A model generated the notes under the pieces. The model ran no database searches. It was not told where the DNA came from and saw only the letters and a list, made by a program, of their open reading frames with translations. From a virus (lineage: Duplodnaviria; Caudoviricetes): 64,000 bases of DNA. The stretch is taken from IMG/VR virus record IMGVR_UViG_3300044652_000022, positions 1 to 64,000 of that record; one strand, 5' to 3'. Numbering within the stretch: the first letter of the stretch is position 1; every line of letters starts with the position of its first letter. This document shows positions 33,339 to 55,356 of this stretch, piece after piece. The translations under genes were made by a program, and so were the position numbers.

Positions 33339-33659
33339 ATGACCATCGCTGCTCTCCTCGCCGCGGCTCGCAAAATCTGGGGGGCGGAGCGGATGACCTT
33401 GCCCGAGATCATCGTTTGTCTGAACGTGATCCTGGGCGATATCGCGCGGCTGCAACGAGACCGGGATCGGGAGCGGTCGCTTCCTGGAGTTTGGGACCGC
33501 GCGCTGAAAAAGGAACTCGGGAATCTGATCTTATCCACGATCCGCTGGTGCGACGATTTAGACTTCAACCCCAACGAGTGCATTATCGAAGCGCAAAAGG
33601 CTCAGGCGGTGATGGCGGATCGGCTGCGGATCGAGCGGACAGGGAGGATTCAAGGATGA
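33339..33659 (+). CDS. MazG-like all-alpha NTP pyrophosphohydrolase (tentative)
   Basis: LGDIARL..KELGNLILSTIRWCDDLDFNP pattern. Confidence 0.4.
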   Translation: MTIAALLAAARKIWGAERMTLPEIIVCLNVILGDIARLQRDRDRERSLPGVWDRALKKELGNLILSTIRWCDDLDFNPNECIIEAQKAQAVMADRLRIERTGRIQG

Positions 33660-33946
33660 GTCTTTTCACTTCTCTATTGCTGGCGGACGCTTTCGAGAAA
33701 GGCGGTCCCGGTTCCGGCCAACTCCCAGGATCCGCATCCGCCGCTGCGGCTCGGGCTTCGGAACGGGCTATTGACAAGTCCTCGCATAAGCGAGCAGCAA
33801 AGCTGCACACCCGCGCCGCCACCGCTCATTTGCAGGCGGCGGTGCATGTTGGCGGAACACTGTCGGAAAAGGGACGCGAGCACCTTGCTGCGTACGATAC
33901 CCACCACAATGCGGCGTTAGAGCATTGGCTGCGGGCGGGCAAATAA
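33656..33946 (+). CDS. Small His/Ala-rich protein with leader MSLFTSLLLADAFEK-GGPGSG
   Basis: Leader shared with 40867 and 41244. Confidence 0.8.
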   Translation: MSLFTSLLLADAFEKGGPGSGQLPGSASAAAARASERAIDKSSHKRAAKLHTRAATAHLQAAVHVGGTLSEKGREHLAAYDTHHNAALEHWLRAGK

Positions 33947-34450
33947 ATGATCTCCGTGACCATTCAGTTTAATTCCGCCGAGGAAATGCTCGAGGCGCTC
34001 CTCTCGCTGGCGGAGAACGCAGGAAAGTTTCAGGAACAGCTGGACCGCATCGAAGGCACCCTTGACAAGATCCTAGAAAACGAAAGGAATATTATGGCCA
34101 ATGAACAGCAGATGCAGGATGCGTTGAACAAAATCGACCAGGCGACGACGCGCGCGGGTCAGAACCTCCAGACCCTGTCCACTACCACGCAGAAAATCAG
34201 CGACGAGGTGGACCAATTCATTTCGAAACTCCAAGACGCGAACGTTCCGCAGAACCTCATCGACCAGGCTACCGGGTTGGCGGATCGTCTCCAGACCGTG
34301 TCCGACGGTTTGGACCAGCACGCCACCTTTCTTAGCGCAATCGCTTCGAAAGGAGCCAGCAATCCAGTCCCTGTCCCAGTCCCTCCCGCTCCCACCGACG
34401 GCGGAAGCCTCAGTCCCACTCCCGACACGGGTTCCGCTCCGACGCCGTAG
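33947..34450 (+). CDS. Coiled-coil protein with Pro-rich tail
   Basis: 167 aa with heptad pattern. Confidence 0.7.
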   Translation: MISVTIQFNSAEEMLEALLSLAENAGKFQEQLDRIEGTLDKILENERNIMANEQQMQDALNKIDQATTRAGQNLQTLSTTTQKISDEVDQFISKLQDANVPQNLIDQATGLADRLQTVSDGLDQHATFLSAIASKGASNPVPVPVPPAPTDGGSLSPTPDTGSAPTP

Positions 34451-34466
34451 CGCGGCGGCGGCTAAA

Positions 34467-34600
34467 GCTCTTCTAGCGTTCCTCCGCAGGCTCCTCGGGC
34501 GTTAGAAGGGGAAAGGGCTGCGCGTAGCGGATGCGAGGCCGACAATGGTGCGCCGGTCTCGACCACTCAACGTCATGAGGTCGTCTGTTACCGCAGCCCT
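34467..34600 (+). ncRNA. Candidate structured RNA (three-way junction)
   Basis: P1 agggctgcg/cgcagccct plus an 8-bp extension, P2 gaggccg/cggtctc, P3 gac..ctca/tgaggtc. Confidence 0.4.
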
Positions 34601-35064
34601 GACCTAGATTCCGCCAATGTCCTCGCCGGCTCCGCATCCCAGGGTCAAGATTACCTTTCATTCCGCTGGCGCCTCGACTGGCGGATATTCGTTTCCTGCG
34701 GCGCCCGAATCTGCGCATTTCGATCTTCCCGAGGATCTGACGTTCGAAGGCTTCTGTTCTAAGATCATGTCGGAAGGATTCCTGTTGTCAGGCGACGGCA
34801 TCCCGAACCGGTACCGCCACCGTCCGCATATCAAGCGTTACGTTCCGCCGTACGCGGTCATCCGCATCGAGGAAGCATGACCGCTTATTATGCCCCCCAA
34901 GGTCTTGTGCTGACCCGTCCGCAAGCGGCGAGCGAGGCCAAAGGGGGCCACCCCTTTTCATGACGCACCCAAGCTGGATCGTTCCGGCCTCGCAGCCGCA
35001 GGGACGCATGGTGATTCGTTTTTATCGGACGCCCACCGGGTTCAAACCCATCCTCGTCCACTCC

Positions 35065-35140
35065 TGGGGCATAGCTCAAGCGGCAGAGCGCCGGACCTTG
35101 ATTCCGGAGGTTGCAGGTTCGAAGCCTGCTGCCCCAGCCA
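35065..35140 (+). tRNA. tRNA-Gln(UUG)
   Basis: 76 nt; TGGGGCA/TGCCCCA acceptor stem, D arm GCTC/GAGC, anticodon arm CCGGA-CCTTGAT-TCCGG, TTCGAAG loop, encoded CCA. Confidence 0.9.
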
Positions 35141-35167
35141 GAAAAAAATCCTTCAGGTAACCCTCCC

Positions 35168-36721
35168 GTGCCCAAGTCCGTCGCCCCTCCGCCTCCCAAA
35201 AAGCAAAAGTACATCCCGCGGAAACAGTTCCTCGCGCAAAAACACGCCGGCGTGATCCCTGGCAGCGTCCAGTTCATCGACTACAAGCCGCGCGGCGCCA
35301 TCAAGCAAATTTTCAGCCTAAGGATCCCGGAATGGGTGCTGTCGGGACCAGCCGGGACTGGGAAGTCTCGCGGCTGTCTAGAAAAAGCGCACTGGATGCT
35401 GGAGAAGTATCCAAACGCGCGCGGGCTGATGGTGCGCAAGACGCGGAACAGCATGAACCAGTCCTGCATCGTCACGTTCGAAAACAAAGTCCTCCCCACC
35501 CCAACCTACGTTCCCTTCCACACGACCGATCAGGAATACCGCTATCCCAACGGCTCGATATTCGCCGTAGCCGGGATCGACGACCCGAAGAAAATCTATT
35601 CGTCAGAGTGGGACTTCTGTTACGTCAACCAGGCGGAGGAACTGACCGAGGACGATTGGGAGAACATCAAATCCCGGCTCCGCAACTGGAAGATGCCGTA
35701 TCAATCGTTGTTTGCGGACTGCAACCCGGACGCGCCTTCGCACTGGATTCGGACGCGCGCCGCCACCGGGATGCTGCAACTGCTCGAAAGCCGCCACGAG
35801 GATAACCCGGAACTGTGGGACGAGGTAAACAAGTGCTGGACGGAGCGAGGGCGGCAGTACGTTTTAGAGATCCTCGATAAACTTACCGGCGTCCGCTACA
35901 AGCGTTTGCGGCTCGGGCAGTGGGCGGCGGCGGAAGGGACGGTGTACGAGGACGTCTGGGACCGCGCCGTCCATATTATTGATCGCTTTTATCCCAACGT
36001 TCCTTTGGACCGCGATCAAGTCCCACCCGACTGGCCGCGGTACTGGGTGATTGATTTTGGCTATACGAATCCGTTCGTCTGGCAGGCTTGGGCGGAGGAC
36101 CCCGACGGGCGCCTGATCCGCTACAAGGAAATCTACCACACAAAACGATTGGTCGAGGACCACGCCCGCCAGATCCTCGAGGTCACGAAATACGATCCGA
36201 AACCGAAACTGATCGTATGCGACCACGACGCCGAAGACCGAGCGACGTTAGAAAAGTACCTCGGGATGCCAACCAAGGCGGCGTGGAAGTCTGTGAGCCC
36301 TGGCATTCAAGCGGTGGCGGCGAGACTGCGAGTCCAGGACGACGGCAAACCGCGTTTGATGTACATGCGCGATTCGGTCATCGAACTCGACCAGGAACTC
36401 CTCCGCCAGCACCTCCCGACCTCGACCGAGGATGAATACGACGTTTACGCCTGGGATATCGCGACGGCAGGCAAACCGCGCAAGCGAGGAATCGGCGAGG
36501 AGCCAATCAAGAAATACGACCACGGGATGGACGATACGCGGTACATCGTCACGTACATCGACAAGACCTGGGAGATCAAGCCGCACCTGTTCAAGATGAT
36601 TTCCGTGACCAAGTCAGGATCCGACACGCCAGACAATCTGCACTCCGGAAGCGGCTGGCGGATGGGAAACACGAACGCTCCAAGCAAGTTTGGGGGTGGG
36701 AGCGGGAGGTTTCGTGAATAA
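35168..36721 (+). CDS. terL: Terminase large subunit (PBSX-like)
   Basis: GPAGTGKS Walker A, DCNP, IDFGYTNP nuclease motif, DHGMDDTRY. Confidence 0.93.
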   Translation: MPKSVAPPPPKKQKYIPRKQFLAQKHAGVIPGSVQFIDYKPRGAIKQIFSLRIPEWVLSGPAGTGKSRGCLEKAHWMLEKYPNARGLMVRKTRNSMNQSCIVTFENKVLPTPTYVPFHTTDQEYRYPNGSIFAVAGIDDPKKIYSSEWDFCYVNQAEELTEDDWENIKSRLRNWKMPYQSLFADCNPDAPSHWIRTRAATGMLQLLESRHEDNPELWDEVNKCWTERGRQYVLEILDKLTGVRYKRLRLGQWAAAEGTVYEDVWDRAVHIIDRFYPNVPLDRDQVPPDWPRYWVIDFGYTNPFVWQAWAEDPDGRLIRYKEIYHTKRLVEDHARQILEVTKYDPKPKLIVCDHDAEDRATLEKYLGMPTKAAWKSVSPGIQAVAARLRVQDDGKPRLMYMRDSVIELDQELLRQHLPTSTEDEYDVYAWDIATAGKPRKRGIGEEPIKKYDHGMDDTRYIVTYIDKTWEIKPHLFKMISVTKSGSDTPDNLHSGSGWRMGNTNAPSKFGGGSGRFRE

Positions 36722-36739
36722 TCTCTGTTTCCGCCGCGA

Positions 36740-36840
36740 AAATCCACCCGCTGCTCCGCGTTTGCTCTGGTTCTGCTCGATTCCGACGCCGGAACTGGTG
36801 GAATACAGCCGGAACGCCGCTTCCGATCGCTTATAGACCA
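36740..36840 (-). repeat. Dispersed repeat copy (minus strand)
   Basis: Reverse complement reads tggtctataagcgatcg...tcgagcagaaccagagcaaacgcggagcag. Confidence 0.8.
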
Positions 36841-36921
36841 TGCTCTTCCCAGGGAAATATCGCCACCCGAGGCACTTCGCTATTACCCAGGAGCTAGTGA
36901 AAGCAGATTATAAGGTGTGGA

Positions 36922-37191
36922 ATGACCCCAGCCGAACAGCTACCCAATCCGCCAGCCGAGACCGAGGATCTGGGAACGATCCCAGGAACGCAAGCGCCGC
37001 TGAGGCGAGTTCCGCCTCCGCCGCGCCCAGCGTGGTACGAACTCGACAGGTACCAGCGCTACCGGGACTTGTTCCTGGCTATTGGTTTTTTGATCCTGCT
37101 GTCCGGGATAGCGATGATTTCGAAACCTGCTGCGATCATTTGCGCTGGCGTCGGGCTGATGATCCTGGCTTATCTAATGTCGGTGAAATAG
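36922..37191 (+). CDS. Two-TM membrane protein, holin candidate
   Basis: Two hydrophobic helices; upstream of the endolysin. Confidence 0.5.
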   Translation: MTPAEQLPNPPAETEDLGTIPGTQAPLRRVPPPPRPAWYELDRYQRYRDLFLAIGFLILLSGIAMISKPAAIICAGVGLMILAYLMSVK

Positions 37192-37202
37192 AAGAGGAAA
37201 AA

Positions 37203-37754
37203 ATGTCCACTGCATCGAAGAGTATTCTATTGGCGCTGCAATACGCCCCGTCCGTGTCCAACGCCGTGCGGCAGTTGCAGCAAACGCATTCCGATCTTCC
37301 AGGTCCCAACCGCAAGGCGGTCATCATGGACAGCATTACGGCGGCGTGTCAGATTGGAGAAACGGTGCCTGAAGAACACGTGGCGCTGATCTCTTGCCTG
37401 ATCGAAACGGCGGTCGGGCTAGTGAAGCGCTGGCAGGCGGAGGGTGCCTTGAATAAAGCGGATTCGGGTCCGAAGGCCGACAACCTATCTGGGACTACGA
37501 TTGCTCAGGCGCGCAACGTTGGCGGAGCCGGAACTGGGCCTCGTCCTGTTACGGGATTGGGCACCGTGACTACCTCTCCGCCTTTCCCGTCCACGTCCAC
37601 CACGACTGTCACGCCGCCGCCGCAAGCGCCGCCGGCCCCATCATATCCCACTGCCGCGGATGCAGCGGAAGGCGGTAGAACGCGCAGCGACGGCGGAACG
37701 ATTCCGGGTCCGTCATTGACGACTGCTCCCGACCGTCCAGCCGGGAATCCGTGA
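37203..37754 (+). CDS. Hypothetical protein, Pro/Thr-rich tail
   Basis: GAGG RBS at 37203. Confidence 0.6.
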   Translation: MSTASKSILLALQYAPSVSNAVRQLQQTHSDLPGPNRKAVIMDSITAACQIGETVPEEHVALISCLIETAVGLVKRWQAEGALNKADSGPKADNLSGTTIAQARNVGGAGTGPRPVTGLGTVTTSPPFPSTSTTTVTPPPQAPPAPSYPTAADAAEGGRTRSDGGTIPGPSLTTAPDRPAGNP

Positions 37755-37788
37755 AACGCCGAATCAGGCTGGCGAGGTCGCGAAGGCG

Positions 37789-38217
37789 ATGGCGTCGAAT
37801 GAAGAAATGGTGAGCGAGCACTTCTCTATCCGAGAACTCGCTTGCCATCATTGCGGGCGGTCAGGGGTCCGGGACGAACTCGTCCGCGCCCTGGAAGCAT
37901 TCAGGGCCGAGGTGTCGAAGGAACGCGGAGCCGATACGGCTGTGATTGTGGACGACGCTTACCGGTGTCCGATTCACAACCGCGCCGTGGGTGGCGTCCA
38001 GAACTCCCAGCACCTCCTCGGGTTGGCAGCGGACGTGAAGGTGTCGGGCATGACCGCCCGCGAGCTTTACAAAATCGCCCTCCGCGTTCCCGAGATCAAA
38101 GGCTTGGGCGTGGACGACCACCACAACTATTTGCATATCGACGTGCGAGCGACCCACGCCGTGGTTTCGTGGTGCTACGACCTCGCCGGGAAGCAAACGA
38201 AATTCTATGAGGCTTGA
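37789..38217 (+). CDS. Peptidase M15A endolysin
   Basis: HFSIRELAC, AYRCPIHN..VGG..NSQHLLGLAAD, LHIDVR. Confidence 0.9.
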   Translation: MASNEEMVSEHFSIRELACHHCGRSGVRDELVRALEAFRAEVSKERGADTAVIVDDAYRCPIHNRAVGGVQNSQHLLGLAADVKVSGMTARELYKIALRVPEIKGLGVDDHHNYLHIDVRATHAVVSWCYDLAGKQTKFYEA

Positions 38218-38265
38218 ATCTCTGGGGTGTTGTCTGCGTACTCTCCCGTTCCGCTTCTCCCAGAG

Positions 38266-38329
38266 CTGCGGCGGAGGGCCAGGTCATGACTCCGCCTGGG
38301 GTGCTCGCATCCTCTGCCGCAGTCTTTTT
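38266..38329 (+). terminator. Terminator-like hairpin
   Basis: 12-bp stem ctgcggcggagg/cctctgccgcag followed by tcttttt. Confidence 0.65.
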
Positions 38330-38343
38330 CAGGATCGTGTGAC

Positions 38344-39837
38344 ATGGCGCTAATCGACCGCGTGTCCAAACTCATCCCCTCGGCGTCGTCGCGGATGGGC
38401 ATTTTAGGCAATAGCGCCGCCGTCGCTCTTCCAGGTCGCGGTGGCGTGCCCGACATGCCGCGTCCGCGTCCCTTCGACGAACTGGGCGTGTCCGGCTTGA
38501 ATCGGATGCGCGGCATCGGGACGGTCAATGAAGAATGGCTGATTGACCTGTCCGGGAATCGGTGGAAGCAAATCTACCGCGAGATGCGCGACAACGATCC
38601 CGTTATCGGTGCGATGTTCTTCGCTCTGGAGACCATCCTCCGCAAAGCGGAATGGTCCGTCGAACCAGCCAAGGGACCCGACGGCGACAACATCGCCCAG
38701 TTCATCCGCGACTGCATGGACGACATGTCGCATACGTGGGAGGACTTTATTGCCGAGTGCGTCTCCCAGTTCACCTTCGGATTCGCGCTATTCGAGACCG
38801 TATACAAGCGCCGCAAGGGGATGAACGGAAAGCACGCCTCCCGGTTTGGCGACGGGCTGATTGGCTGGCGCAAATTCGCGCCTCGCGCCCAGGAGTCTAT
38901 CGTGTACTGGGTTTGGGACGAGGAAGGCGGGTTGCAGGGAGCGCAGCAGCTAGCTCCGCCCGACTACAAGCTCTGCACTCTCCCAATTGAAAAACTGATG
39001 CTCTTCCGCACCACCTCGCTGAAGAACAACCCGGAGGGAAGGTCCATTCTGCGGAACTGCTATCGCCCGTGGTTCTTCAAGCGCCGCATCGAAGAGGTGG
39101 AAGGGATCGGGATCGAGCGAGACCTCTGCGGGTTGCCGGTCCTCTATGCGACCGAAGAGGCCCTTGGGCAAATGGGTGGTGAGAACGCCGCGCGGACTCT
39201 TGTGCGGAACATTCGCGTGGACGACCAAGCTGGCGTCGTTCTCCCTCAGGCCTTCGACGACAAAGGCAATCCGCTGGTCAAGCTGGAACTTTTAAAAGCT
39301 GCCGGAGCCAAACAGACGGACCCGGACAAGACCATCACGCGGTACAATCAGGATATTTTGAACACGATGCTCGCCGGGTTCATTCAATTCGGCCAGACAC
39401 CCACCGGGTCGCGGTCGTTGCACGTTTCCGCCACCGAAATCTTCTCGCTCGCGATTACGACGTTCATGGACGGCGTGGCTGCGGTGATGAACCGCTACGC
39501 CATCCCGCGCCTGATGGCGCTGAATCAGATGGATCTGGAAAAAGCGCCGCGCCTGATCCCAGGTGAAATCGGCGTCCGCGATTTAGAAGAGCTTGCGGAC
39601 TTCGTGCAAAAGCTGTCCCAGGCTGGGTTGACGTTCTGGGATCCGCCAACCGTCGATTACCTGCGCAAGATGGCGCGGTTGCCCAAGGCGCCGCCCGAGG
39701 AAGCCATGCCGCCCGCGGCGCAGAATCCCGAAGGGGAACCGCAGCCTGGACAATTGCCTCCAGGACAAGCGCCCGCCGGGTCTGAAGGGCCTCAGGATCA
39801 GGCGGAGGCGCAGCGGCAGCTGGAGGGCGTGGCGTGA
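38344..39837 (+). CDS. Portal protein (DUF935/Mu gp29-like)
   Basis: YREMRDNDPVIG, NPEGRSILRNCY, ERDLCGLP; position after TerL. Confidence 0.9.
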   Translation: MALIDRVSKLIPSASSRMGILGNSAAVALPGRGGVPDMPRPRPFDELGVSGLNRMRGIGTVNEEWLIDLSGNRWKQIYREMRDNDPVIGAMFFALETILRKAEWSVEPAKGPDGDNIAQFIRDCMDDMSHTWEDFIAECVSQFTFGFALFETVYKRRKGMNGKHASRFGDGLIGWRKFAPRAQESIVYWVWDEEGGLQGAQQLAPPDYKLCTLPIEKLMLFRTTSLKNNPEGRSILRNCYRPWFFKRRIEEVEGIGIERDLCGLPVLYATEEALGQMGGENAARTLVRNIRVDDQAGVVLPQAFDDKGNPLVKLELLKAAGAKQTDPDKTITRYNQDILNTMLAGFIQFGQTPTGSRSLHVSATEIFSLAITTFMDGVAAVMNRYAIPRLMALNQMDLEKAPRLIPGEIGVRDLEELADFVQKLSQAGLTFWDPPTVDYLRKMARLPKAPPEEAMPPAAQNPEGEPQPGQLPPGQAPAGSEGPQDQAEAQRQLEGVA

Positions 39838-39852
39838 GAGTTTTTTACAACC

Positions 39853-40497
39853 ATGAGGACGCTGCATTTTCTAGCGGTCTCTCTGGTGCTCCTTTCTCTT
39901 GTAGACGCCTTTGGGCAACCTCAGGAAGCGGAACGGTATCAGGACGACCGCAAACGCTCCCCGCTCATTGGTCAACCACCCCGGGTTGCGAGCCCAGAGA
40001 TCGTCCAGCAAATGAAGCAGAGATTAGAAAGGAGCGAATTTGGATCGGGGCTGACACCAGCCGAACTGAACGAGATCAAAAAATTACGGGAAGCCGATAT
40101 TGCGCTACTCAATCGCATTATCGAAACCGACCGCAAGTACAAGGAACTGGTCGAGTACATCAACGGACTGAACGACACGTTAGACGCCAGGCTCCTGACC
40201 CAGGCCATAGACGATATCAAGCAACTGAAGCAGGAACAGCAGGACAGGTTGGAGACCGAGAAAACCGAGCACGAGCGCAACATGCGCATGGTCGGGTCGA
40301 TCAAAACCGGAACGATCATGCTGGTAATTGGCATGGTCGTGCATTGGGTCAAATGGATGATCTTCGACCCGAAGCGGAGGAAGGCTCTGCTCAACGCCAT
40401 GCAGCGGCAAACGGAAGAGGTCAAGCACAAGGACTGCACGGAGTTCGAGCGGGAGTATCGACCTCACTACTACCCCAAAGAGGGGTCGGACGACTGA
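39853..40497 (+). CDS. Secreted/membrane coiled-coil protein
   Basis: N-terminal signal peptide and a C-proximal TM helix. Confidence 0.65.
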   Translation: MRTLHFLAVSLVLLSLVDAFGQPQEAERYQDDRKRSPLIGQPPRVASPEIVQQMKQRLERSEFGSGLTPAELNEIKKLREADIALLNRIIETDRKYKELVEYINGLNDTLDARLLTQAIDDIKQLKQEQQDRLETEKTEHERNMRMVGSIKTGTIMLVIGMVVHWVKWMIFDPKRRKALLNAMQRQTEEVKHKDCTEFEREYRPHYYPKEGSDD

Positions 40498-40510
40498 ATC
40501 GGCTTTAAAA

Positions 40511-40870
40511 ATGCGCGAATGGTTCCATCGTTTTGCGGAGAAGGCGGAAAGGTACGCTGGGTCCCCATCTGCCTTCTTCATTGCCACGGCGATGGTCTTG
40601 GTCTGGCTGGCCACGGGACCAGCCATGCGCTTCACCGACACGTGGCAGTTTCTGATCGACACGCCCACCAACATCATTACCTTCCTGATGGTCTTTGTTC
40701 TGCAAACCTCGCAGAACCGGAACCAGAAGGCGCTTCATTTGAAGCTAGACGAACTGATCCGCGTTTCGACAGCGCGGAATGCCTTTGTCGGTCTGGAGAA
40801 GTTCAGTGAGGACCAGATTGCCGAACTCCAGCGCGAGTTTGATAGGATAGCGAAGGGAGACGAAAGATGA
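40511..40870 (+). CDS. Low-affinity iron permease family (Fet4-like)
   Basis: FTDTWQFLIDTPTNIITFLMVFVLQTSQNR..ALHLKLDELI. Confidence 0.85.
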   Translation: MREWFHRFAEKAERYAGSPSAFFIATAMVLVWLATGPAMRFTDTWQFLIDTPTNIITFLMVFVLQTSQNRNQKALHLKLDELIRVSTARNAFVGLEKFSEDQIAELQREFDRIAKGDER

Positions 40871-41232
40871 GTTTGTTCACTTCCCTGCTCTTGGCGGATG
40901 CGGTGGAGAAAGGCGGACCTGGATCGGGACGCCATCCGGGAGGCGGATCGGATCCTCGTTCGCTGGCGATCCATGCCCGCCGTATGACAGAGGCAGCGCA
41001 GGACGCGACGAAACGATCCCGTTCAGAAAATTCTGGGTCGGCGCATCGCGAAGCAGCGGCGGCTCATGAGCGGGCAGAGTACGCCCACCGCGCCGCATCC
41101 GACGCCTATCGAGCGGAAGGCAATCGCGAGCGTTCCGCCAACGGACATGCAGACCAGGCGCAGCGACACCAGCGCGCCGCAGCGTTTCACAGCAGGATGG
41201 CTACCGCCGACACCGTTCGGCGCTGGGAATAG
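40867..41232 (+). CDS. Small His/Ala/Arg-rich protein with shared leader
   Basis: MSLFTSLLLADAVEK-GGPGSG. Confidence 0.8.
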   Translation: MSLFTSLLLADAVEKGGPGSGRHPGGGSDPRSLAIHARRMTEAAQDATKRSRSENSGSAHREAAAAHERAEYAHRAASDAYRAEGNRERSANGHADQAQRHQRAAAFHSRMATADTVRRWE

Positions 41233-41243
41233 GAGAACAGAAG

Positions 41244-41885
41244 ATGAGTTTGCTAACGTCGTTGCTGTTGACGGACTCGATTGAAAAAGGCGGACCCGGA
41301 TCGGGACGCCGCCCTGGCGGTGGGCAAGCTCCTCCGTCCTCGTTATTCGAACACGAACGCGCGGCGCGGCAGGCTTCGACGCGCGCCAACTTCACCAACA
41401 AGCCCGAACACCACGCCTACGCTGCGAAAATGCACCGCGAGGCTGCGTCGGCGTTTGGCGCCAAGGGTGACCGAGAAAAGCAACAGAGCCACGAGCGCCT
41501 GGCTGCGTTTCACGAACGCAAAGCCGCGAGCGTGGGCAAGGGTGGTCCCGGATCCGGCCGACATGCGGAAGGCGGAAGCCAACGCTTCACAATGGCCGGC
41601 GGTCGTCATTCAGGAACAGGAATGACGCACCAGGAGTTCGGGCACTTTGCGGCGAAGGTCGGCATGGCGCTGAACGAAAACCGCGCGAAGGAGAACTCGT
41701 TGCGGGCAGCAGGCAACCACGAAGCCGCCAACCGCATTTACGATGAGAACAAGGGCCGGGTCAAAGGGATCCTGGATGAACACGGCGTAACGCCCCAAGC
41801 CTTCGATCACCACATGGGCGTTTACTCCAAAGCATCCGGGTCTCGTCCGCCCAACGTGAAGCTGTCCCGCATGTTCATGTCCTAA
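41244..41885 (+). CDS. Protein with shared leader and a second internal KGGPGSG
   Basis: MSLLTSLLLTDSIEK-GGPGSG ... SVGK-GGPGSG. Confidence 0.8.
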   Translation: MSLLTSLLLTDSIEKGGPGSGRRPGGGQAPPSSLFEHERAARQASTRANFTNKPEHHAYAAKMHREAASAFGAKGDREKQQSHERLAAFHERKAASVGKGGPGSGRHAEGGSQRFTMAGGRHSGTGMTHQEFGHFAAKVGMALNENRAKENSLRAAGNHEAANRIYDENKGRVKGILDEHGVTPQAFDHHMGVYSKASGSRPPNVKLSRMFMS

Positions 41886-42292: not shown

Positions 42293-43261
42293 ATGCCCGT
42301 TACCTTCGTCAGGAAGTCGGTGTCCAACCCGATCAACGATGCTGCGGCGAACATGGAGCCCAAGCTGAGAAAGGCTTTCTTAGACGCCGTAGCCGCGATG
42401 AAAAAGAAAGTCAGCCTCGACAAGCTGGCGAAGGCGGTGGAGCGAGGCAATGTAAATGAAGCCTTGTCCATTCTGGCGTTAGACAAAGACTTCGCCGACG
42501 CCCTGCGCGGCAAAGGACTCCAGGCCCACCTCGATTCGTTCCGCGACGCCATCAATCAAACGGTCGCGGCTGGAGCCAAGGCGGCTGTGAAAATGCTGCC
42601 AACCAGAATCAGCACCGACCTGTCCTTCAACCTCATGTCTCCCGACGCCGTGGCCTTCGTAGACTCGTATTCGTTTGGACTCATTCACCAGGTCACGCAG
42701 GACACCATCGAAGCCATCCGAGATGTCCTGCATCGCGGATTCAGCGAGGGCGGACATCCGCTGGAGATGGCGCGCGAGATTCGCGACTTCATTGGGTTGA
42801 CGACCAACCAGGAACGGGCGGTGGCCAACTACAAACGCGCCTTGTCCGATCCGTCGAAAATGCGGACGGCTCTGGATCGGGCTCTGCGCGATGGACGCCA
42901 CGACGCCACCGTCCTCCGCGCCGTCCGCAACAACGCGCCGCTAGACCAGGCGATGGTAGACAAAATGGTGGCTCGATACAAGGAACGTTACGTCCAGTAC
43001 CGAGCCCAAATGATCGCTCGCACCGAATCCATCCGAGCCAGCAATGTCGGTCAAAAAGAAGTCTGGCGGCAAGCCCAGCGCCAGGGCTTGCTAGATGGAG
43101 CGGTGCGGGTATGGATTTCGTCGGGCGACGACCGCGAGTGCGACATTTGCGGAGACCTCGACGGCGAAACGGCAGGCATGGATGAGGAATTTGCTCCCGG
43201 TATCCTGCATCCGCCAACTCATCCGTCCTGCCGCTGTACAACGGCCTTGCAATTCAGCTAA
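42293..43261 (+). CDS. Head morphogenesis protein (MuF/SPP1 gp7)
   Basis: RAQMIARTE, CDICGDLDG, PPTHPSCRCT. Confidence 0.9.
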   Translation: MPVTFVRKSVSNPINDAAANMEPKLRKAFLDAVAAMKKKVSLDKLAKAVERGNVNEALSILALDKDFADALRGKGLQAHLDSFRDAINQTVAAGAKAAVKMLPTRISTDLSFNLMSPDAVAFVDSYSFGLIHQVTQDTIEAIRDVLHRGFSEGGHPLEMAREIRDFIGLTTNQERAVANYKRALSDPSKMRTALDRALRDGRHDATVLRAVRNNAPLDQAMVDKMVARYKERYVQYRAQMIARTESIRASNVGQKEVWRQAQRQGLLDGAVRVWISSGDDRECDICGDLDGETAGMDEEFAPGILHPPTHPSCRCTTALQFS

Positions 43262-44649: not shown

Positions 44650-47600
44650 GTGACGACTATCCCTCCCCCAGTGTTTGAAAAGATCCCGGACCCGAAGGCG
44701 CAGTCGCTCTTAAAGCAGTTTGTGGCGCGTCATTTGAACAGCGGAGCTTCGGAGCTGGTCGCCTACGTGAAGGCGTATCGAGCACTCGAGGAAGCCGGGT
44801 ACGCGCGCGGCGACGACGGGACCTGGGTCCTGAAGGACTCGCCCACCATCTCCGACGTGCATGTTCCTGGCATCTTCCGCTTCCGTCTGCCGCGTCGTCG
44901 CCGCAAGCCCAAAAAAGACAAGCCAGCAATTCTGAAGCGCATCAGCGGCAACTCGGATATCGGGTTGAACGCCAAAGGCTCTGAGGACGCCATGCGCCTT
45001 GGGGAGCGGTTAGCGGCGCGTGGGGGGCTGGATGTGCTTTACGCAAGTCCAGTGGCGCGCGCCGCCCAGACCGCTGAAGCCTTGACCGAAGCCGATCCGT
45101 CCTTGACGTACCAGCTGAACAGCGCCCTGGCGCCCTGGCACCTGGGAAAGTACGAAGGGCGGATGCCCGAAGAGGTTGGGACGAAAATCGACCGCCTGAT
45201 CCAGAACCCGGACGACCGTCCTCCAGGCAACGGGCAGGATGCGGTGCCAGGTGAATCTTTCAACGATTTCAAAAAACGGATTATTACCTTCGTGCATGAC
45301 GCCGGGATCGAATGGTCCAAGCATCCCGATATGCGCCTCGGGATCGTGATGCACTCGCGCCCGCTCGATCTGATAATGGACTGGATCGCGGCTGGTGGTC
45401 CTCCTCCAGACTCGTCTTTCCGTCTGCGTCATACGCAGGAACACAACGACAATTTGCAGCATGGATCGGTCTGGGTCTGGCGCCTCAACGATATCGAGAC
45501 GCAGCAGGTGGACCTGAACCTCAACGATCCGCTGCCTGGCGGCGTGTACCTGATCCTGCATTGTCTGACGGACGACGACCCGGACGACGGGATCGAACTC
45601 GACGCTACCGAAAAACGCTACGTCCCTCCTATCGAAGCCATCCGCGATGCCCAGGCTTCGTTCGAGGCTGGGTTCACGGTTCCTGAAATCACGGAAAAGC
45701 TGGCTTCGGGTGAAGGACTGACGCTCGATGAGGTCGAGCGGATATACGAGTTCTTCGGGACCGCCTCCAACGATATCGAAAAGCGCGCCTGGGGCGGACC
45801 CTTCGCCGCCAAGTGGGTGACGCGCGTTATCCGCAAGGCGTACACGGTCGAGGAGGACTTTGAAAAGGCAGATGGGCAGTGGGTAACTGTTCATGGTGTG
45901 CATGTATTCATCGACAAAAATGGTGTTATCCAAAAAGGTCCTCGCACGCTGATTGGGCAACACCATACCGCTGTTACCCACAAGGACGTTGACGCTGTTT
46001 TCGAGGACAAAACGCCGCCTTCAATTCCCCCTAAAGGTTCTCCTGTAGAGGCTTACGCAGAGAACCTTCCGCATTTTGCGTCTTTCTACCTAAAGGATCA
46101 GGAGGCTGTTAAAACACTTCGGGATGCCTACTTCGCGCAGGAGCATGGTATTGCACCGCCCACAGAGGCAGAAAGACAGTGGACAGAGCACAACCAAAAG
46201 TTTGACCTGAACGATCCTGCCGTAAAAGCCCAGCAGGAGTTCGTGCAGGCGTGGATGCGGCATTCCTACCCTGATGGAAAGGTCAAGCTGTACAGAGCCC
46301 AATTGGGAGAGCCTCCTAGCAATCAGGTTTCTTACGCCCACGACCGAACGTCCGCCGTCGAGTTCAAGGAAACAGCGCTACAGGGACAGGGCAAGATCGT
46401 TTCGCACACGATCAAGGTCTCCGACATTGTGAATGCGTCGCCCTTTATCGGCTACCTGGGGCGAGCCGATGAGCGTGAAGTCGTCGTAAACCGTTCGGTA
46501 AAGAAAAACGACGCGGTAGAAAAACAAGGCGGCGGGATCATGGTCGCGTTTACCGTGTCCCCAGCGCTTGCGGACTTGCTGCGTGTAGACGACGGCGAGG
46601 ACTCGGACGACATGCACATTACGCTGGCGTACCTGGGCCAGGTAGATGAAGTGGATCCCGAGCGCCTCGCCTTTCTCGAGGACGCGCTGGAAGGCTTCGG
46701 GTTGACGCATGGGCCAATGACCGGCGACATTTCGGGACCTGCTCGATTCGCTGCAACGAAGCACAGCGACGACAAGGACGTGGCGATAGCGCTGTTCAAT
46801 TCCCCAACCATCCAGGAGTTCCGGAACGAACTCGTCCAGACGATTGAAGCGCTGGGACTGGAGGTAAAAAAGAACTTCGGGTACACGCCGCATATCACGC
46901 TGGCGTACATCAGCCCGGACGAGGACATGCCCGTCCAGCGCATCGACCCGGTCAAGGTGACGTTCGATCAAATCACGTTGTACGTTGGCGGCGAGCGAAC
47001 GGACTTCGATCTGGTGGGATACGCAGAGCCAGTCACCAAGGCTACCGCCGTGGACGAAGGCACCTGGGTGACGATCAATGGCCAGCATGTTTTGATCGGT
47101 GCGAACGGAGAGATCCTGCGCGGGAATCCCAAGGTACTTGGACAGCCCAAGCAAGGTGACCTGCCGCTCCAGCCGGCGATGAAGTTGACGCCGGTAAATG
47201 AAAAAGCCTTCAACGGGAAGCAAATCGAGGTCCAGCACAAGCTCTCTAAACTCGAAACCGGCAAGACAGCAGAGGAAGCCGTCCTCGCGCATTTCCACCA
47301 GCAAGGGCTGACGGACGCGCGTCCGCTGAACGAAAAGCACACGAACTTCCCTATCGACCTCGTCCAGGACCATCAAGCCATCGAGGTCAAAGGCGGGCTG
47401 GTGTCGAATAGCAAAGCCGCGCAGCAGTGGCGTGCGACTATCGGACAGCCAGGCAAGACGGAAACGGCGTGGCTGAAGCAAGCCGGGAAGGAAGAAAAAG
47501 CGGCGTGGAATGATCGCAAGTCCCAGGAGATCCTGAAGCGCAAGGCGGACGCTGTGAAGGAACTCTCCAAGGAGCACGGAGTCAAATTCAAGGGGTACAC

Positions 47601-47730
47601 AATGACCTCGATTATCAACCCCGACACCAAGACCATCGACCTGTATAAATTCGAGGGCTTCCACCTCCGCATCCCGTGGAACTCACCGTCCGCGAAAGCC
47701 GCGTACGTCGGAACATTCCGGTATCAATAA
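44650..47730 (+). CDS. Polyvalent multidomain head-associated protein
   Basis: ChaB-like, His-phosphatase-like, ART-like, 2H phosphoesterase (two HITL motifs) and PD-(D/E)xK (IDLV..IEVK) segments. Confidence 0.85.
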   Translation: MTTIPPPVFEKIPDPKAQSLLKQFVARHLNSGASELVAYVKAYRALEEAGYARGDDGTWVLKDSPTISDVHVPGIFRFRLPRRRRKPKKDKPAILKRISGNSDIGLNAKGSEDAMRLGERLAARGGLDVLYASPVARAAQTAEALTEADPSLTYQLNSALAPWHLGKYEGRMPEEVGTKIDRLIQNPDDRPPGNGQDAVPGESFNDFKKRIITFVHDAGIEWSKHPDMRLGIVMHSRPLDLIMDWIAAGGPPPDSSFRLRHTQEHNDNLQHGSVWVWRLNDIETQQVDLNLNDPLPGGVYLILHCLTDDDPDDGIELDATEKRYVPPIEAIRDAQASFEAGFTVPEITEKLASGEGLTLDEVERIYEFFGTASNDIEKRAWGGPFAAKWVTRVIRKAYTVEEDFEKADGQWVTVHGVHVFIDKNGVIQKGPRTLIGQHHTAVTHKDVDAVFEDKTPPSIPPKGSPVEAYAENLPHFASFYLKDQEAVKTLRDAYFAQEHGIAPPTEAERQWTEHNQKFDLNDPAVKAQQEFVQAWMRHSYPDGKVKLYRAQLGEPPSNQVSYAHDRTSAVEFKETALQGQGKIVSHTIKVSDIVNASPFIGYLGRADEREVVVNRSVKKNDAVEKQGGGIMVAFTVSPALADLLRVDDGEDSDDMHITLAYLGQVDEVDPERLAFLEDALEGFGLTHGPMTGDISGPARFAATKHSDDKDVAIALFNSPTIQEFRNELVQTIEALGLEVKKNFGYTPHITLAYISPDEDMPVQRIDPVKVTFDQITLYVGGERTDFDLVGYAEPVTKATAVDEGTWVTINGQHVLIGANGEILRGNPKVLGQPKQGDLPLQPAMKLTPVNEKAFNGKQIEVQHKLSKLETGKTAEEAVLAHFHQQGLTDARPLNEKHTNFPIDLVQDHQAIEVKGGLVSNSKAAQQWRATIGQPGKTETAWLKQAGKEEKAAWNDRKSQEILKRKADAVKELSKEHGVKFKGYTMTSIINPDTKTIDLYKFEGFHLRIPWNSPSAKAAYVGTFRYQ

Positions 47731-48434
47731 TGCCTGTCCCAAAAGAGGTTGAGCAGGAGTTCCAGGACGCCCTGGACGCCTACATTAAAGACTGGAAGGC
47801 GGACCTTCTCGCTCACGCCAAAGAGTATGAGGCGAAAAAGGAGAAGCGCGAAAAGCCCAAATGTCCGCATTGCGGATCGAGCGACTACGGGCTTCTCCCT
47901 GCCGACTTCGAAACGGCTCGCTGCCACAACTGCGGCAAGACATGGGACCACGGCATTGTTCCCGGCATCAACGATCCATACGAAAAACGCCAGGTCGAAG
48001 TTTCTGGGACGATCACGAAATTGGACAAGAGCCGCCACCTGGTGTTTGGATGGTTCTCGATTGTCAAGGTGGACGGACGTCCGGTCGTGGACAGCCAGCA
48101 GGATATCATCACGCCAGAAACCCTCGAGGACTCTGCCTACCAGTTTGTCTTGAACGCGCGAGTGGCTGGCGAGATGCACAACAAGGACGGCGACAACACG
48201 GTGGTTGGCGTCGGGCGCCTCGTAGAGTCTGTGGTCTTTACGAAAGAAAAGCAAGCCGCCATCGTGTCTAGCCTAACCGACCAGCACATCTCTGCCGTGA
48301 TGGATCTTGGGATGGAGGGCTGGTGGGGCGGCTTTCGCATCGAGGACGAAGCCACTTGGGCGAAGGTAGTTACCGGAGAACTGCGCGCCTTCTCGATTGG
48401 CGGCAAGGGCAAGCGAGAAAAGATTTCGGAATAG
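47730..48434 (+). CDS. XkdF-like prohead serine protease
   Basis: LVFGW, DIITPETLE, GEMH, VESVV, WWGGF, FSIGG. Confidence 0.85.
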   Translation: MPVPKEVEQEFQDALDAYIKDWKADLLAHAKEYEAKKEKREKPKCPHCGSSDYGLLPADFETARCHNCGKTWDHGIVPGINDPYEKRQVEVSGTITKLDKSRHLVFGWFSIVKVDGRPVVDSQQDIITPETLEDSAYQFVLNARVAGEMHNKDGDNTVVGVGRLVESVVFTKEKQAAIVSSLTDQHISAVMDLGMEGWWGGFRIEDEATWAKVVTGELRAFSIGGKGKREKISE

Positions 48435-54354: not shown

Positions 54355-55356
54355 ATGCCTCAACCGACCTTAGCAGATATTCACGTAAACCGACCGCTGA
54401 CGAACCTCACGGTCGGCTACGTCCAGGACGCCTCGGACTTCGCGGCCGGACAGCTTTTTCCCAGCGTGCCCGTCACGTCTCGATCGGATCTGTACTACGT
54501 GTACAACCGCGGCGACTTCTTCCGCAACAACATGCAGAAGCGGGCGCCGGGAACTCCCGCGGCTGCTGGCGGCTACAAGCTGACCACGGCGCCGTATACG
54601 GCGGACGTTTGGGCGCTCAAGAAAATCATTGACGACCAGATCCGCGCCAACTACGAGTCGCCGCTCGACGCTGAACGCGACGCCACGCAGTGGCTCACGC
54701 AGCAGGCCCTCATCAATCGCGACGTGAACTTCGTCGCCGCCTATTTTGGCACCGGCATCTGGGGCACGGACCTGACCGGGCATCCGACCACCGCCGACGC
54801 CACGCATTTCATCCAGTGGTCCAACACGGCCTCGACCCCCATCGACGACATCCTCAACGCCCAGCTTTACATGAAGCGGACGACTGGGATGTGGCCGAAC
54901 GTGCTGGCTCTGGGCGCGCAGGTCTACATCAAACTCCTGACGCACCCGCAGATCATCGACCGCTTGAAATACGGTCAAACGGGACCTGGTCCGGTGGTCG
55001 TCAGCACCTCCGACCTCCAGGCTCTGTTCAAAGTGGACAAGGTCGTGGTCATGTCGGCGATCCAGACGACTTCGCCGGAGAACATGGACCCGACGGGCGC
55101 TGGCGACACGTTCGACTTCATCGCCGGGAAACACGCCCTCCTCGCCTACGCCTCTCCGAATCCCGGGCTCATGCAGCCCTCCGCCGGGTACACGTTCAAT
55201 TGGACCGGGCTGACGGGCGCCACGGCCGCTGGCATTCGGATCAAGAAATTCCGCTGGGAAGTCGACGCTGCCGACCACCTGGAAATCGAGCAGGCTTACG
55301 CCTTCGGTAAAGTGGCGGCGGAGTTGGGCTACTTCTTCAGCGGCGCCGTGGCGTAG
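54355..55356 (+). CDS. Major capsid protein (HK97 fold)
   Basis: VNRPLTNLTVGY, FPSVPV; 333 aa; strong codon bias; synteny. Confidence 0.88.
   Translation: MPQPTLADIHVNRPLTNLTVGYVQDASDFAAGQLFPSVPVTSRSDLYYVYNRGDFFRNNMQKRAPGTPAAAGGYKLTTAPYTADVWALKKIIDDQIRANYESPLDAERDATQWLTQQALINRDVNFVAAYFGTGIWGTDLTGHPTTADATHFIQWSNTASTPIDDILNAQLYMKRTTGMWPNVLALGAQVYIKLLTHPQIIDRLKYGQTGPGPVVVSTSDLQALFKVDKVVVMSAIQTTSPENMDPTGAGDTFDFIAGKHALLAYASPNPGLMQPSAGYTFNWTGLTGATAAGIRIKKFRWEVDAADHLEIEQAYAFGKVAAELGYFFSGAVA

Follow-up and report, generated by a model that had tools for sequence, protein, structure and literature searches.

Three small proteins encoded in the head module of an uncultured tailed phage share an N-terminal leader joined to a GGPGSG junction, which together may constitute an address peptide and a head-protease cut site for loading cargo into the phage head, a reading that we regard as evenly balanced between right and wrong. 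The open reading frames (ORFs) concerned, named here by their first nucleotides as ORFs 33656, 40867 and 41244, lie in the 64-kb stretch of DNA analysed (positions 1 to 64,000, hereafter 'the window') of IMG/VR virus record IMGVR_UViG_3300044652_000022 (Duplodnaviria; Caudoviricetes), a 75-kb contig that is ~79% complete. A first-pass annotation, made from the sequence alone, had proposed that the leader ends at a cut site and serves head loading independently of the phage T4 system; the position of the junctions at module borders, the V-x-K residues found at such borders and the presence of leaders on unrelated bodies all speak for this proposal, whereas GGPGSG itself turned out to be generic rather than specific to the leader.

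The N-termini of the three proteins fit the pattern MSL[FL]TSLLL[AT]D[AS][FVI]EK-GGPGSG, and in ORF 41244 a further unit, ASVGK-GGPGSG, lies internally at 41526-41558 and leads into another module that differs from the first. All four units have a hydrophobic residue at -3 and lysine at -1 (AFEK, AVEK, SIEK and SVGK before GGPGSG). A degenerate DNA pattern for GGPGSG occurs four times in the window, always on the + strand and always within these ORFs, against an expectation of 0.07 from shuffled sequence (0/100 shuffles reach four copies), and no further copy is present in the rest of the 75-kb contig. Each ATG is preceded, 7-9 nucleotides upstream, by a Shine-Dalgarno-like GGAGG, GGGAG or AGGAG (GGAGG at ORF 33656), and the start of ORF 40867 overlaps the stop of the upstream PF04120 gene (ATGA). 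Leader and junction (21 amino acids) are identical at 17-20 of 21 positions between pairs of ORFs; over the same codons, the three pairs show 8/12/1, 6/11/4 and 10/7/4 identical, synonymously different and non-synonymously different codons, respectively. The peptide has thus been retained in spite of heavy divergence at synonymous sites, which excludes gene conversion or a recent duplication as the cause of this identity; the leader is under strong selection.

Beyond residue 15 the bodies are basic (isoelectric point, pI, 10.3-10.9), with H-x6-H spacing 4, 4 and 3 times and the stricter H-x2-AA-x2-H 3, 2 and 1 times. They align as a single His/Ala helical domain (35-46% identity), by which the three genes are old paralogs with a leader far better conserved than the bodies, and not a tag on unrelated proteins. 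Given this paralogy, sharing of the leader within the window would in itself be no proof that the signal is portable; the evidence for portability comes from other contigs. An AlphaFold2 (AF2) model of ORF 40867, built from a small alignment, consists of a three-helix bundle (residues 30-54, 57-83 and 87-120; mean predicted local distance difference test score, pLDDT, 84, helices mostly >95) preceded by disordered junction residues (16-29). In the PDB, Foldseek matched this bundle only to helical proteins that are generic or designed. Apart from one marginal PHROG match, none of the three ORFs could be assigned to a Pfam or PHROGs family, and the ESM Atlas yielded no usable match for the second module of ORF 41244; by Pfam and PHROGs, each ORF comprises one or two small modules with no enzyme domain. 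As to what such cargo might do, we can only guess at neutralisation of DNA charge, at DNA condensation, or at action against the host of the kind ascribed to T4 internal proteins. The features that the first-pass annotation had listed for these ORFs, namely the shared leader in all three frames, the second K-GGPGSG unit, the synonymous divergence under a conserved peptide (7-12 of 21 codons synonymous, 1-4 non-synonymous differences per pair) and the basic bodies with H-x2-AA-x2-H periodicity, were all recovered.

Direct homologs of the three ORFs are few, and no relative could be confirmed when GTDB species genomes were scanned. In metagenomic protein P0001 a related leader runs straight into the module that comes second in ORF 41244; P0002 contains two units, and P0003 joins leader, junction and His-rich domain to a larger protein. 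The second unit of ORF 41244 can be placed at a module border because the two modules of that protein occur separately elsewhere (P0001).

The junction, in contrast to the leader, is widespread. A DNA-pattern scan of IMG/VR for KGGPGSG recovered at least 119 stretches and, with loci from a separate search, at least 186 distinct units. Among these, 59 belong to the type found in the window, K-GGPGSG-[RP]-[HYR]-P-[EGA]-G-[GS] (subclass RxPxG), 39 to N-[FW]-GH-x-GRPG-x-x-GGS (subclass NxGH), 13 to x3-GH-x-F-x-GNQ (subclass GHxF) and 7 to I-K-GH, in addition to others. Position -3 relative to GGPGSG is V, L, I, F or M in 72% of the units listed, and in internal junctions (n=136) the only informative positions are -3 (2.0 bits; V/L/I/F) and -1 (1.9 bits; K or A). 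Units sit between recognisable Pfam domains (NUDIX/MTase and XkdF; His_Phos on one side and 2H, ART and XkdF on the other; MuF and HAD phosphatase; ART-PolyVal and MuF), with five to nine units in some proteins. On this comparative evidence GGPGSG is a general junction, located mostly inside large proteins, and not a feature of this leader, so that the 'leader' really consists of two parts, a specific, putative address peptide and a generic junction.

Some loci stand out by the number or setting of their units. Proteins of the NxGH subclass (in L018, L026, L062, L068, L103, L114 and others) contain up to six copies each, in contigs without a detected XkdF domain; one 113.7-kb IMG/VR contig (G019, comprising loci L087, L088 and L054) has at least nine K-GGPGSG units distributed over several large proteins, and would be well suited as a model of the proposed loading code should it have a cultured relative; and a 1549-amino-acid ART-PolyVal/MuF protein (L114:4229-8875) combines four junctions with weak, sub-threshold matches of Hint/intein type near its C-terminus.

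Portability of the leader is apparent from both protein and contig searches. HMMER, using a profile of leader, junction and bundle against 1.84 billion representative proteins, returned 199 proteins at E <= 0.001; in 103 of the 153 sequences analysed from these matches the first junction lies within 45 residues of the N-terminus, and dozens carry variants of xLTTLLLADAVEK, such as MNMLTTLLLADAVEK, MDRLTSLLLADAVEK, MSLVAHLLADAVDK and MRLLTDLILKDAVEK. For 17 leader proteins that passed a strict match, BLAST sorted the bodies into 12 clusters; contigs matched by two leader proteins with other bodies were too short for informative context. The IMG/VR scan, which is unbiased, supplies the stronger evidence. 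Among the units listed in it, ~30% lie within 35 residues of the first Met, and at least 12 other contigs encode 2-4 proteins that have a common, phage-specific leader on bodies without significant BLASTP match. Thus MLKSI[HY][RQ]LQ[NK]EQIALVK, M[KT][SD]STGYLIGTIMK and MTI[KT]LLV[CR]VK each occur twice in one contig, MTNPFS..L......P[VL][KT]K occurs on three proteins of one 114-kb phage (G019), and MSSMLTTLLLAD[AS]V.K is found twice in G008. The last of these is the closest relative with a long contig, sharing the capsid family of the window and a unit-bearing polyvalent protein that ends in XkdF; its two leader genes, one of them two genes after the capsid gene, have unrelated bodies and a leader of the same family as that of the window. 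A common, phage-specific N-terminal peptide on unrelated proteins, followed by a generic junction of processing type, is the signature of a targeting signal. Across these sequences, the tag is portable, linked to head-module proteins and located at module borders.

A connection to the head-maturation protease is suggested by co-occurrence and by the residues kept at domain borders. XkdF was detected in 19 of 38 unit-bearing contigs, most of which are fragments, including nearly all RxPxG and GHxF contigs, and is often the C-terminal domain of the unit-bearing protein itself; HK97-type S78 matches were found in 6/38 (two of them in the same region as the XkdF match) and MuF in 18/38. The co-occurrence of the RxPxG subclass with XkdF, to which the window conforms, comes from a small sample. 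When the polyvalent protein of the window was aligned with homologs from L008, L124 and G008, V-[EQT]-K was found to be kept right before the 2H domain (DAVEK/QGGG, DDVQK/ASNG, DRVEK/AGNG and EEVTK/AGDG, the slash marking the border), and V-x-K also right before the XkdF domain (VSKVEK, SPVEK and SAVTK, with PVTK in the window and TITK in its separate protease). After the phosphatase domain, L008 and L124 have ELEK-GGPGSG-RYPAGS followed by a His-rich helical domain of ~120 residues, which in L008 ends in DAVQK directly ahead of the next shared domain; at this border there is nothing but LDATEK in the window and a short linker in G008. In the alignment, GGPGSG and the His-rich bundle together behave like a cassette inserted between hydrophobic-x-K sites, and the stand-alone proteins of the window are the same His-rich module, with a 15-residue leader replacing the upstream polyprotein. 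The head proteome of the window contains five copies of D-[AS]-[VIFLTM]-[EQ]-K, three in the leaders and two at borders of the polyvalent protein, compared with 0.12 expected from shuffles and a maximum of two in 500.

The proteases of phage HK97 and of herpesviruses (assemblin), which belong to the same clan as XkdF, cut at F-N-K/S and V-x-A/S, respectively. A hydrophobic P3 with Lys or Ala at P1 and a small residue thereafter resembles the HK97/assemblin cut-site pattern, with P1 Lys in the former and Ala in the latter. The differences are that HK97 and assemblin sites lie in capsid or scaffold proteins and not in cargo, and that the XkdF site proposed here is putative.

In the mechanism that we propose, the proteins would first be expressed late, and their genes are observed in the late module. 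Residues 1-12 (xSL[FL]TSLLLAD[AS]) would form a short hydrophobic helix serving as the address peptide, which could dock the protein to a component of the procapsid, be it the scaffold, the inner capsid surface or a complex of protease and polyvalent protein; the scaffold-like protein of the window is a possible docking partner. Residues 13-21 onward ([VIF]-E-K-GGPGSG-[RQ]x-P-G-G) would act as a generic junction, with a hydrophobic P3, Lys P1 and a flexible Gly/Pro tail. The XkdF-family protease would cut this junction, most likely after Lys (Lys15, and Lys98 in ORF 41244), LLLADAVEK-GGPGSGRHPGGG being the predicted substrate stretch. After assembly, it would strip the leader from all three proteins and split ORF 41244 into its two modules, and it would also cut the polyvalent protein at its D-A-V/T-E-K borders. 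The basic (pI >10) three-helix bundles would remain inside the head alongside the DNA and later enter the host by ejection. We infer docking, packaging and ejection, as well as where exactly the cut falls and the effect of the cargo. More tentatively, and with somewhat less assurance than for the window itself, we suggest that loading in many uncultured tailed phages may follow a general code of two parts, in which a phage-specific address peptide co-evolves with the procapsid, a near-universal hydrophobic-x-K/A-GGPGSG is cut by the head protease, and modules are shuffled as ready-to-load cassettes; under such a code, the three His-rich bundles of the window would be the simplest stand-alone cargoes.

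Several observations weigh against the cargo-loading interpretation, which is built on comparative evidence only. The AF2 model of ORF 40867 gives the leader helix (residues 4-15) at low confidence, and the window capsid protein has no obvious propeptide with the motif. Contigs of the NxGH subclass are mostly without detectable XkdF, which could be a lineage effect, or could mean that the junction is not tied to one protease and is a generic linker. Portability is seen in other contigs only, the bodies of the window being paralogs, and the extra 1-1.6 bits at each of ~8 positions (-5 to -13) of N-terminal junctions (n=76), which speak for an address function, come from a set retrieved with the leader-containing profile and are thus subject to ascertainment bias. 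Documentation of XkdF protease specificity was not found in the literature searched. No cultured phage carrying the unit was found among 50,697 phage records, searched by BLAST with a complexity filter, or among selected actinophages: tblastn of ORF 40867, ORF 41244, the leader-junction peptide and a typical NxGH junction gave no match to these records, probably in part owing to the low-complexity filter, and the cultured actinophages GTE6 and Wheelbite, in which a homologous 2H domain lies beside or is fused to the head protease, are without the junction.

In one alternative, which we consider unlikely, the junction is a conserved flexible hinge that is never cut and the leader helix stays in place for oligomerisation or for docking to MuF, the portal or DNA-bound partners. 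The disorder of the junction in the AF2 model and its occurrence in several protease contexts, including contigs without an XkdF or S78 match, are as expected for a hinge; it is rare, however, for a plain linker to retain K-GGPGSG exactly over very distant phages while -3 stays hydrophobic and -1 stays K/A. Also against a hinge are the V-x-K border kept directly ahead of the protease domain in fused proteins and module exchange that falls exactly at junction sites.

Somewhat more doubtful is the view that the junction is indeed a protease site but the leader merely its P-side half or a propeptide, with packaging set by the basic helical body through binding to DNA or scaffold. In its favour, -3 and -1 are all that internal junctions require, polyvalent proteins contain the His-rich bundle with no leader attached, and two proteins, P0085 and P0125, start with M-GGPGSG and no leader at all, although these starts may be gene-calling artefacts. 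Against this view, ten further leader positions, none of them needed by a P3-P1 site, are kept over many phage lineages and unrelated bodies, and the leaders are phage-specific whereas the junction is universal.

That the leader is a membrane anchor or an export signal, the latter being Sec-type or of the double-glycine kind known from bacteriocins and cleaved after GG by a C39 peptidase transporter, is very improbable, even though GG follows a brief hydrophobic stretch at the N-terminus and the gene directly upstream (PF04120) encodes a membrane protein. Sec and lipoprotein signals have a basic n-region, an h-region of at least 10 residues and AxA or a lipobox; double-glycine leaders have hydrophobic residues at -4, -7 and -12 from GG and a C39 peptidase transporter nearby. 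In the leader, as judged by eye, no basic residue precedes a hydrophobic run of ~9 residues that is followed by Asp, so that a membrane signal, which the first-pass annotation had named as an outcome that would speak against its proposal, is not indicated; Glu at -4 from GG with the hydrophobic residue at -5 puts the double-glycine register off by one. The same unit moreover occurs inside cytoplasmic enzyme polyproteins of phage head modules, no transporter or C39 peptidase match was obtained among the scanned head-module proteins, and PF04120 is absent from 17 related contigs. We rejected the export reading on composition, GG register and the internal copies in enzyme polyproteins.

That the shared N-terminus is a functionless remnant of recent duplication or gene conversion is barely credible despite the paralogy of the three bodies, and pure paralogy was rejected, since half of the leader codons differ synonymously under an almost unchanged peptide and the same leader has spread to many other phages on unrelated bodies.

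If cargo loading is the correct reading, the closest functional parallel is the capsid-targeting sequence (CTS) of T4, an N-terminal leader of internal proteins IPI-III and Alt. The prohead protease gp21 removes it (Mullaney and Black 1996, cited in PMC12991175 and PMC9024508) by cutting at I/L-x-E (cited in PMC12991175). In both systems a portable N-terminal peptide of ~10-15 residues is common to several small basic proteins, head-internal in T4 and putatively so here, and ends at a protease site, a predicted one in the window. There is no sequence similarity between them: the T4 site is I/L-x-E, cut by a family S77 protease, whereas the window has [VIF]-E-K-GGPGSG and XkdF (S78_2) as the only protease found, and its junction type is also used inside polyproteins. 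By sequence comparison, the window system is analogous and not homologous to the T4 CTS, and is not a member of the T4 system. The first 30 residues of P1 DarB likewise suffice to target a reporter to the capsid (PMC9024508), an N-terminal peptide directing anti-host cargo into the head; DarB differs in being a single large protein with no shared junction motif and no described co-resident family with the same leader.

Polyvalent proteins are known from phages and conjugative elements, and their processing by a C-terminal peptidase has been predicted (Iyer et al. 2017, PMC5512222); one such protein is abundant in phi24B virions (phi24B preprint). The junction described here lies between domains of such proteins (ART, NUDIX, 2H, MuF and a C-terminal assemblin-like/XkdF peptidase). 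Polyvalent proteins are defined by two to fifteen unrelated effector domains, which the three ORFs lack and their 1026-amino-acid neighbour has. In the PMC5512222 text searched, neither a junction motif nor leaders at the N-termini of small stand-alone proteins are mentioned; it is likewise silent on XkdF specificity, as is the jumbo-phage paper, which does not describe the junction either. Nor was any account of the GGPGSG junction or of leaders of this type found in the phage papers searched. Encapsulin cargo-loading peptides offer a further analogy, and no more than that, as short hydrophobic peptides with a Gly/Pro/Ser linker that bring diverse cargo into an HK97-fold shell; they differ in being usually C-terminal, uncleaved and of another consensus.

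Within the window (Table 1), ORF 33656 lies just upstream of the packaging genes, and ORFs 40867 and 41244 between the PF04120 gene and MuF. The ATG of the protease gene at 47730 overlaps the stop of the polyvalent gene.

Table 1. Positions of the leader-bearing ORFs and of the head-module features around them (aa, amino acids).
Feature	Position	Strand	Description
Small cargo candidate 1, 96 aa	33656..33946	+	Leader 33656-33700 (MSLFTSLLLADAFEK), GGPGSG 33701-33718, basic His/Ala helical body
Large terminase	35111		Head module, first in listed order
M15 endolysin-type peptidase	37789-38217		Head module
Mu-type portal protein	38344..39837	+	
PF04120 membrane protein	40511-40870		'Low-affinity iron permease' family, 147 bits
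Small cargo candidate 2, 121 aa	40867..41232	+	Leader 40867-40911 (MSLFTSLLLADAVEK), junction 40912-40929
Two-module cargo candidate 3, 213 aa	41244..41885	+	Leader 41244-41288 (MSLLTSLLLTDSIEK), junction 41289-41306, His/Ala module
MuF-like head morphogenesis protein	42293..43261	+	
Polyvalent protein, 1026 aa	44650..47730	+	His-phosphatase and 2H phosphoesterase domains
Leader-like D-A-[TV]-E-K sites in polyvalent protein	DATEK 45601-45615; DAVEK 46510-46524		Module borders
XkdF-family head-maturation protease candidate	47730..48434	+	Peptidase_S78_2 (PF14550), 60.9 bits vs cut-off 24
Thr/Asn/Gly-rich protein, 957 aa	49311-52184		Without Pfam or PHROG match
Scaffold-like protein, 444 aa	52563..53897	+	Coiled-coil, N-terminal EVSLVDRPA motif, CxxCxGxG zinc finger
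Major head protein phrog_1005	54355..55356	+	Family also in relative G008

The PF04120 gene lies inside the head module and is translationally coupled to the His-rich ORF 40867 by the ATGA overlap. A conserved metal-handling module, combining an iron-permease gene with His-rich cargo, was considered as a general feature and rejected, as PF04120 was not found in the 17 related contigs, in a search that also matched none of its control genomes; the gene is probably a window-specific moron and not part of the cargo system.

Other features of the head module are recorded here in their own right. The polyvalent protein contains two copies of another motif that resembles a junction, W-V-T-[VI]-x-G-x-H-V-x-I-x-x-x-G-x-I-x-x-G (45880-45912 and 47065-47097), each right before a new module and the second preceded by the PVTK site. 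In the XkdF protease, ~95 residues with a CPHC...CHNC zinc-ribbon form an N-terminal extension, which ends in T-I-T-K right before the catalytic domain. The scaffold-like protein includes an internal DnaJ-type CxxCxGxG double zinc-finger, and its EVSLVDRPA motif also precedes a junction in L006. The 957-amino-acid protein, beta-helix or fibre-like in look, occupies an unusual location between the protease and scaffold-like genes, and the M15 peptidase gene is placed between terminase and portal, away from any obvious lysis cassette.

If the proposed reading is true, the capsid-targeting idea established for T4 and P1 would extend to a large uncultured part of the phage world and to an unrelated protease family, for which the junction would represent the first XkdF substrate motif. 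A simple sequence rule, address peptide plus hydrophobic-x-K-GGPGSG, would then flag capsid-packaged and probably injected proteins in metagenomes, mark the module limits of polyvalent proteins, and serve the design of protein loading into HK97-fold capsids. How polyvalent and internal proteins enter phage heads, and whether they are processed there, would become directly testable with a small peptide.

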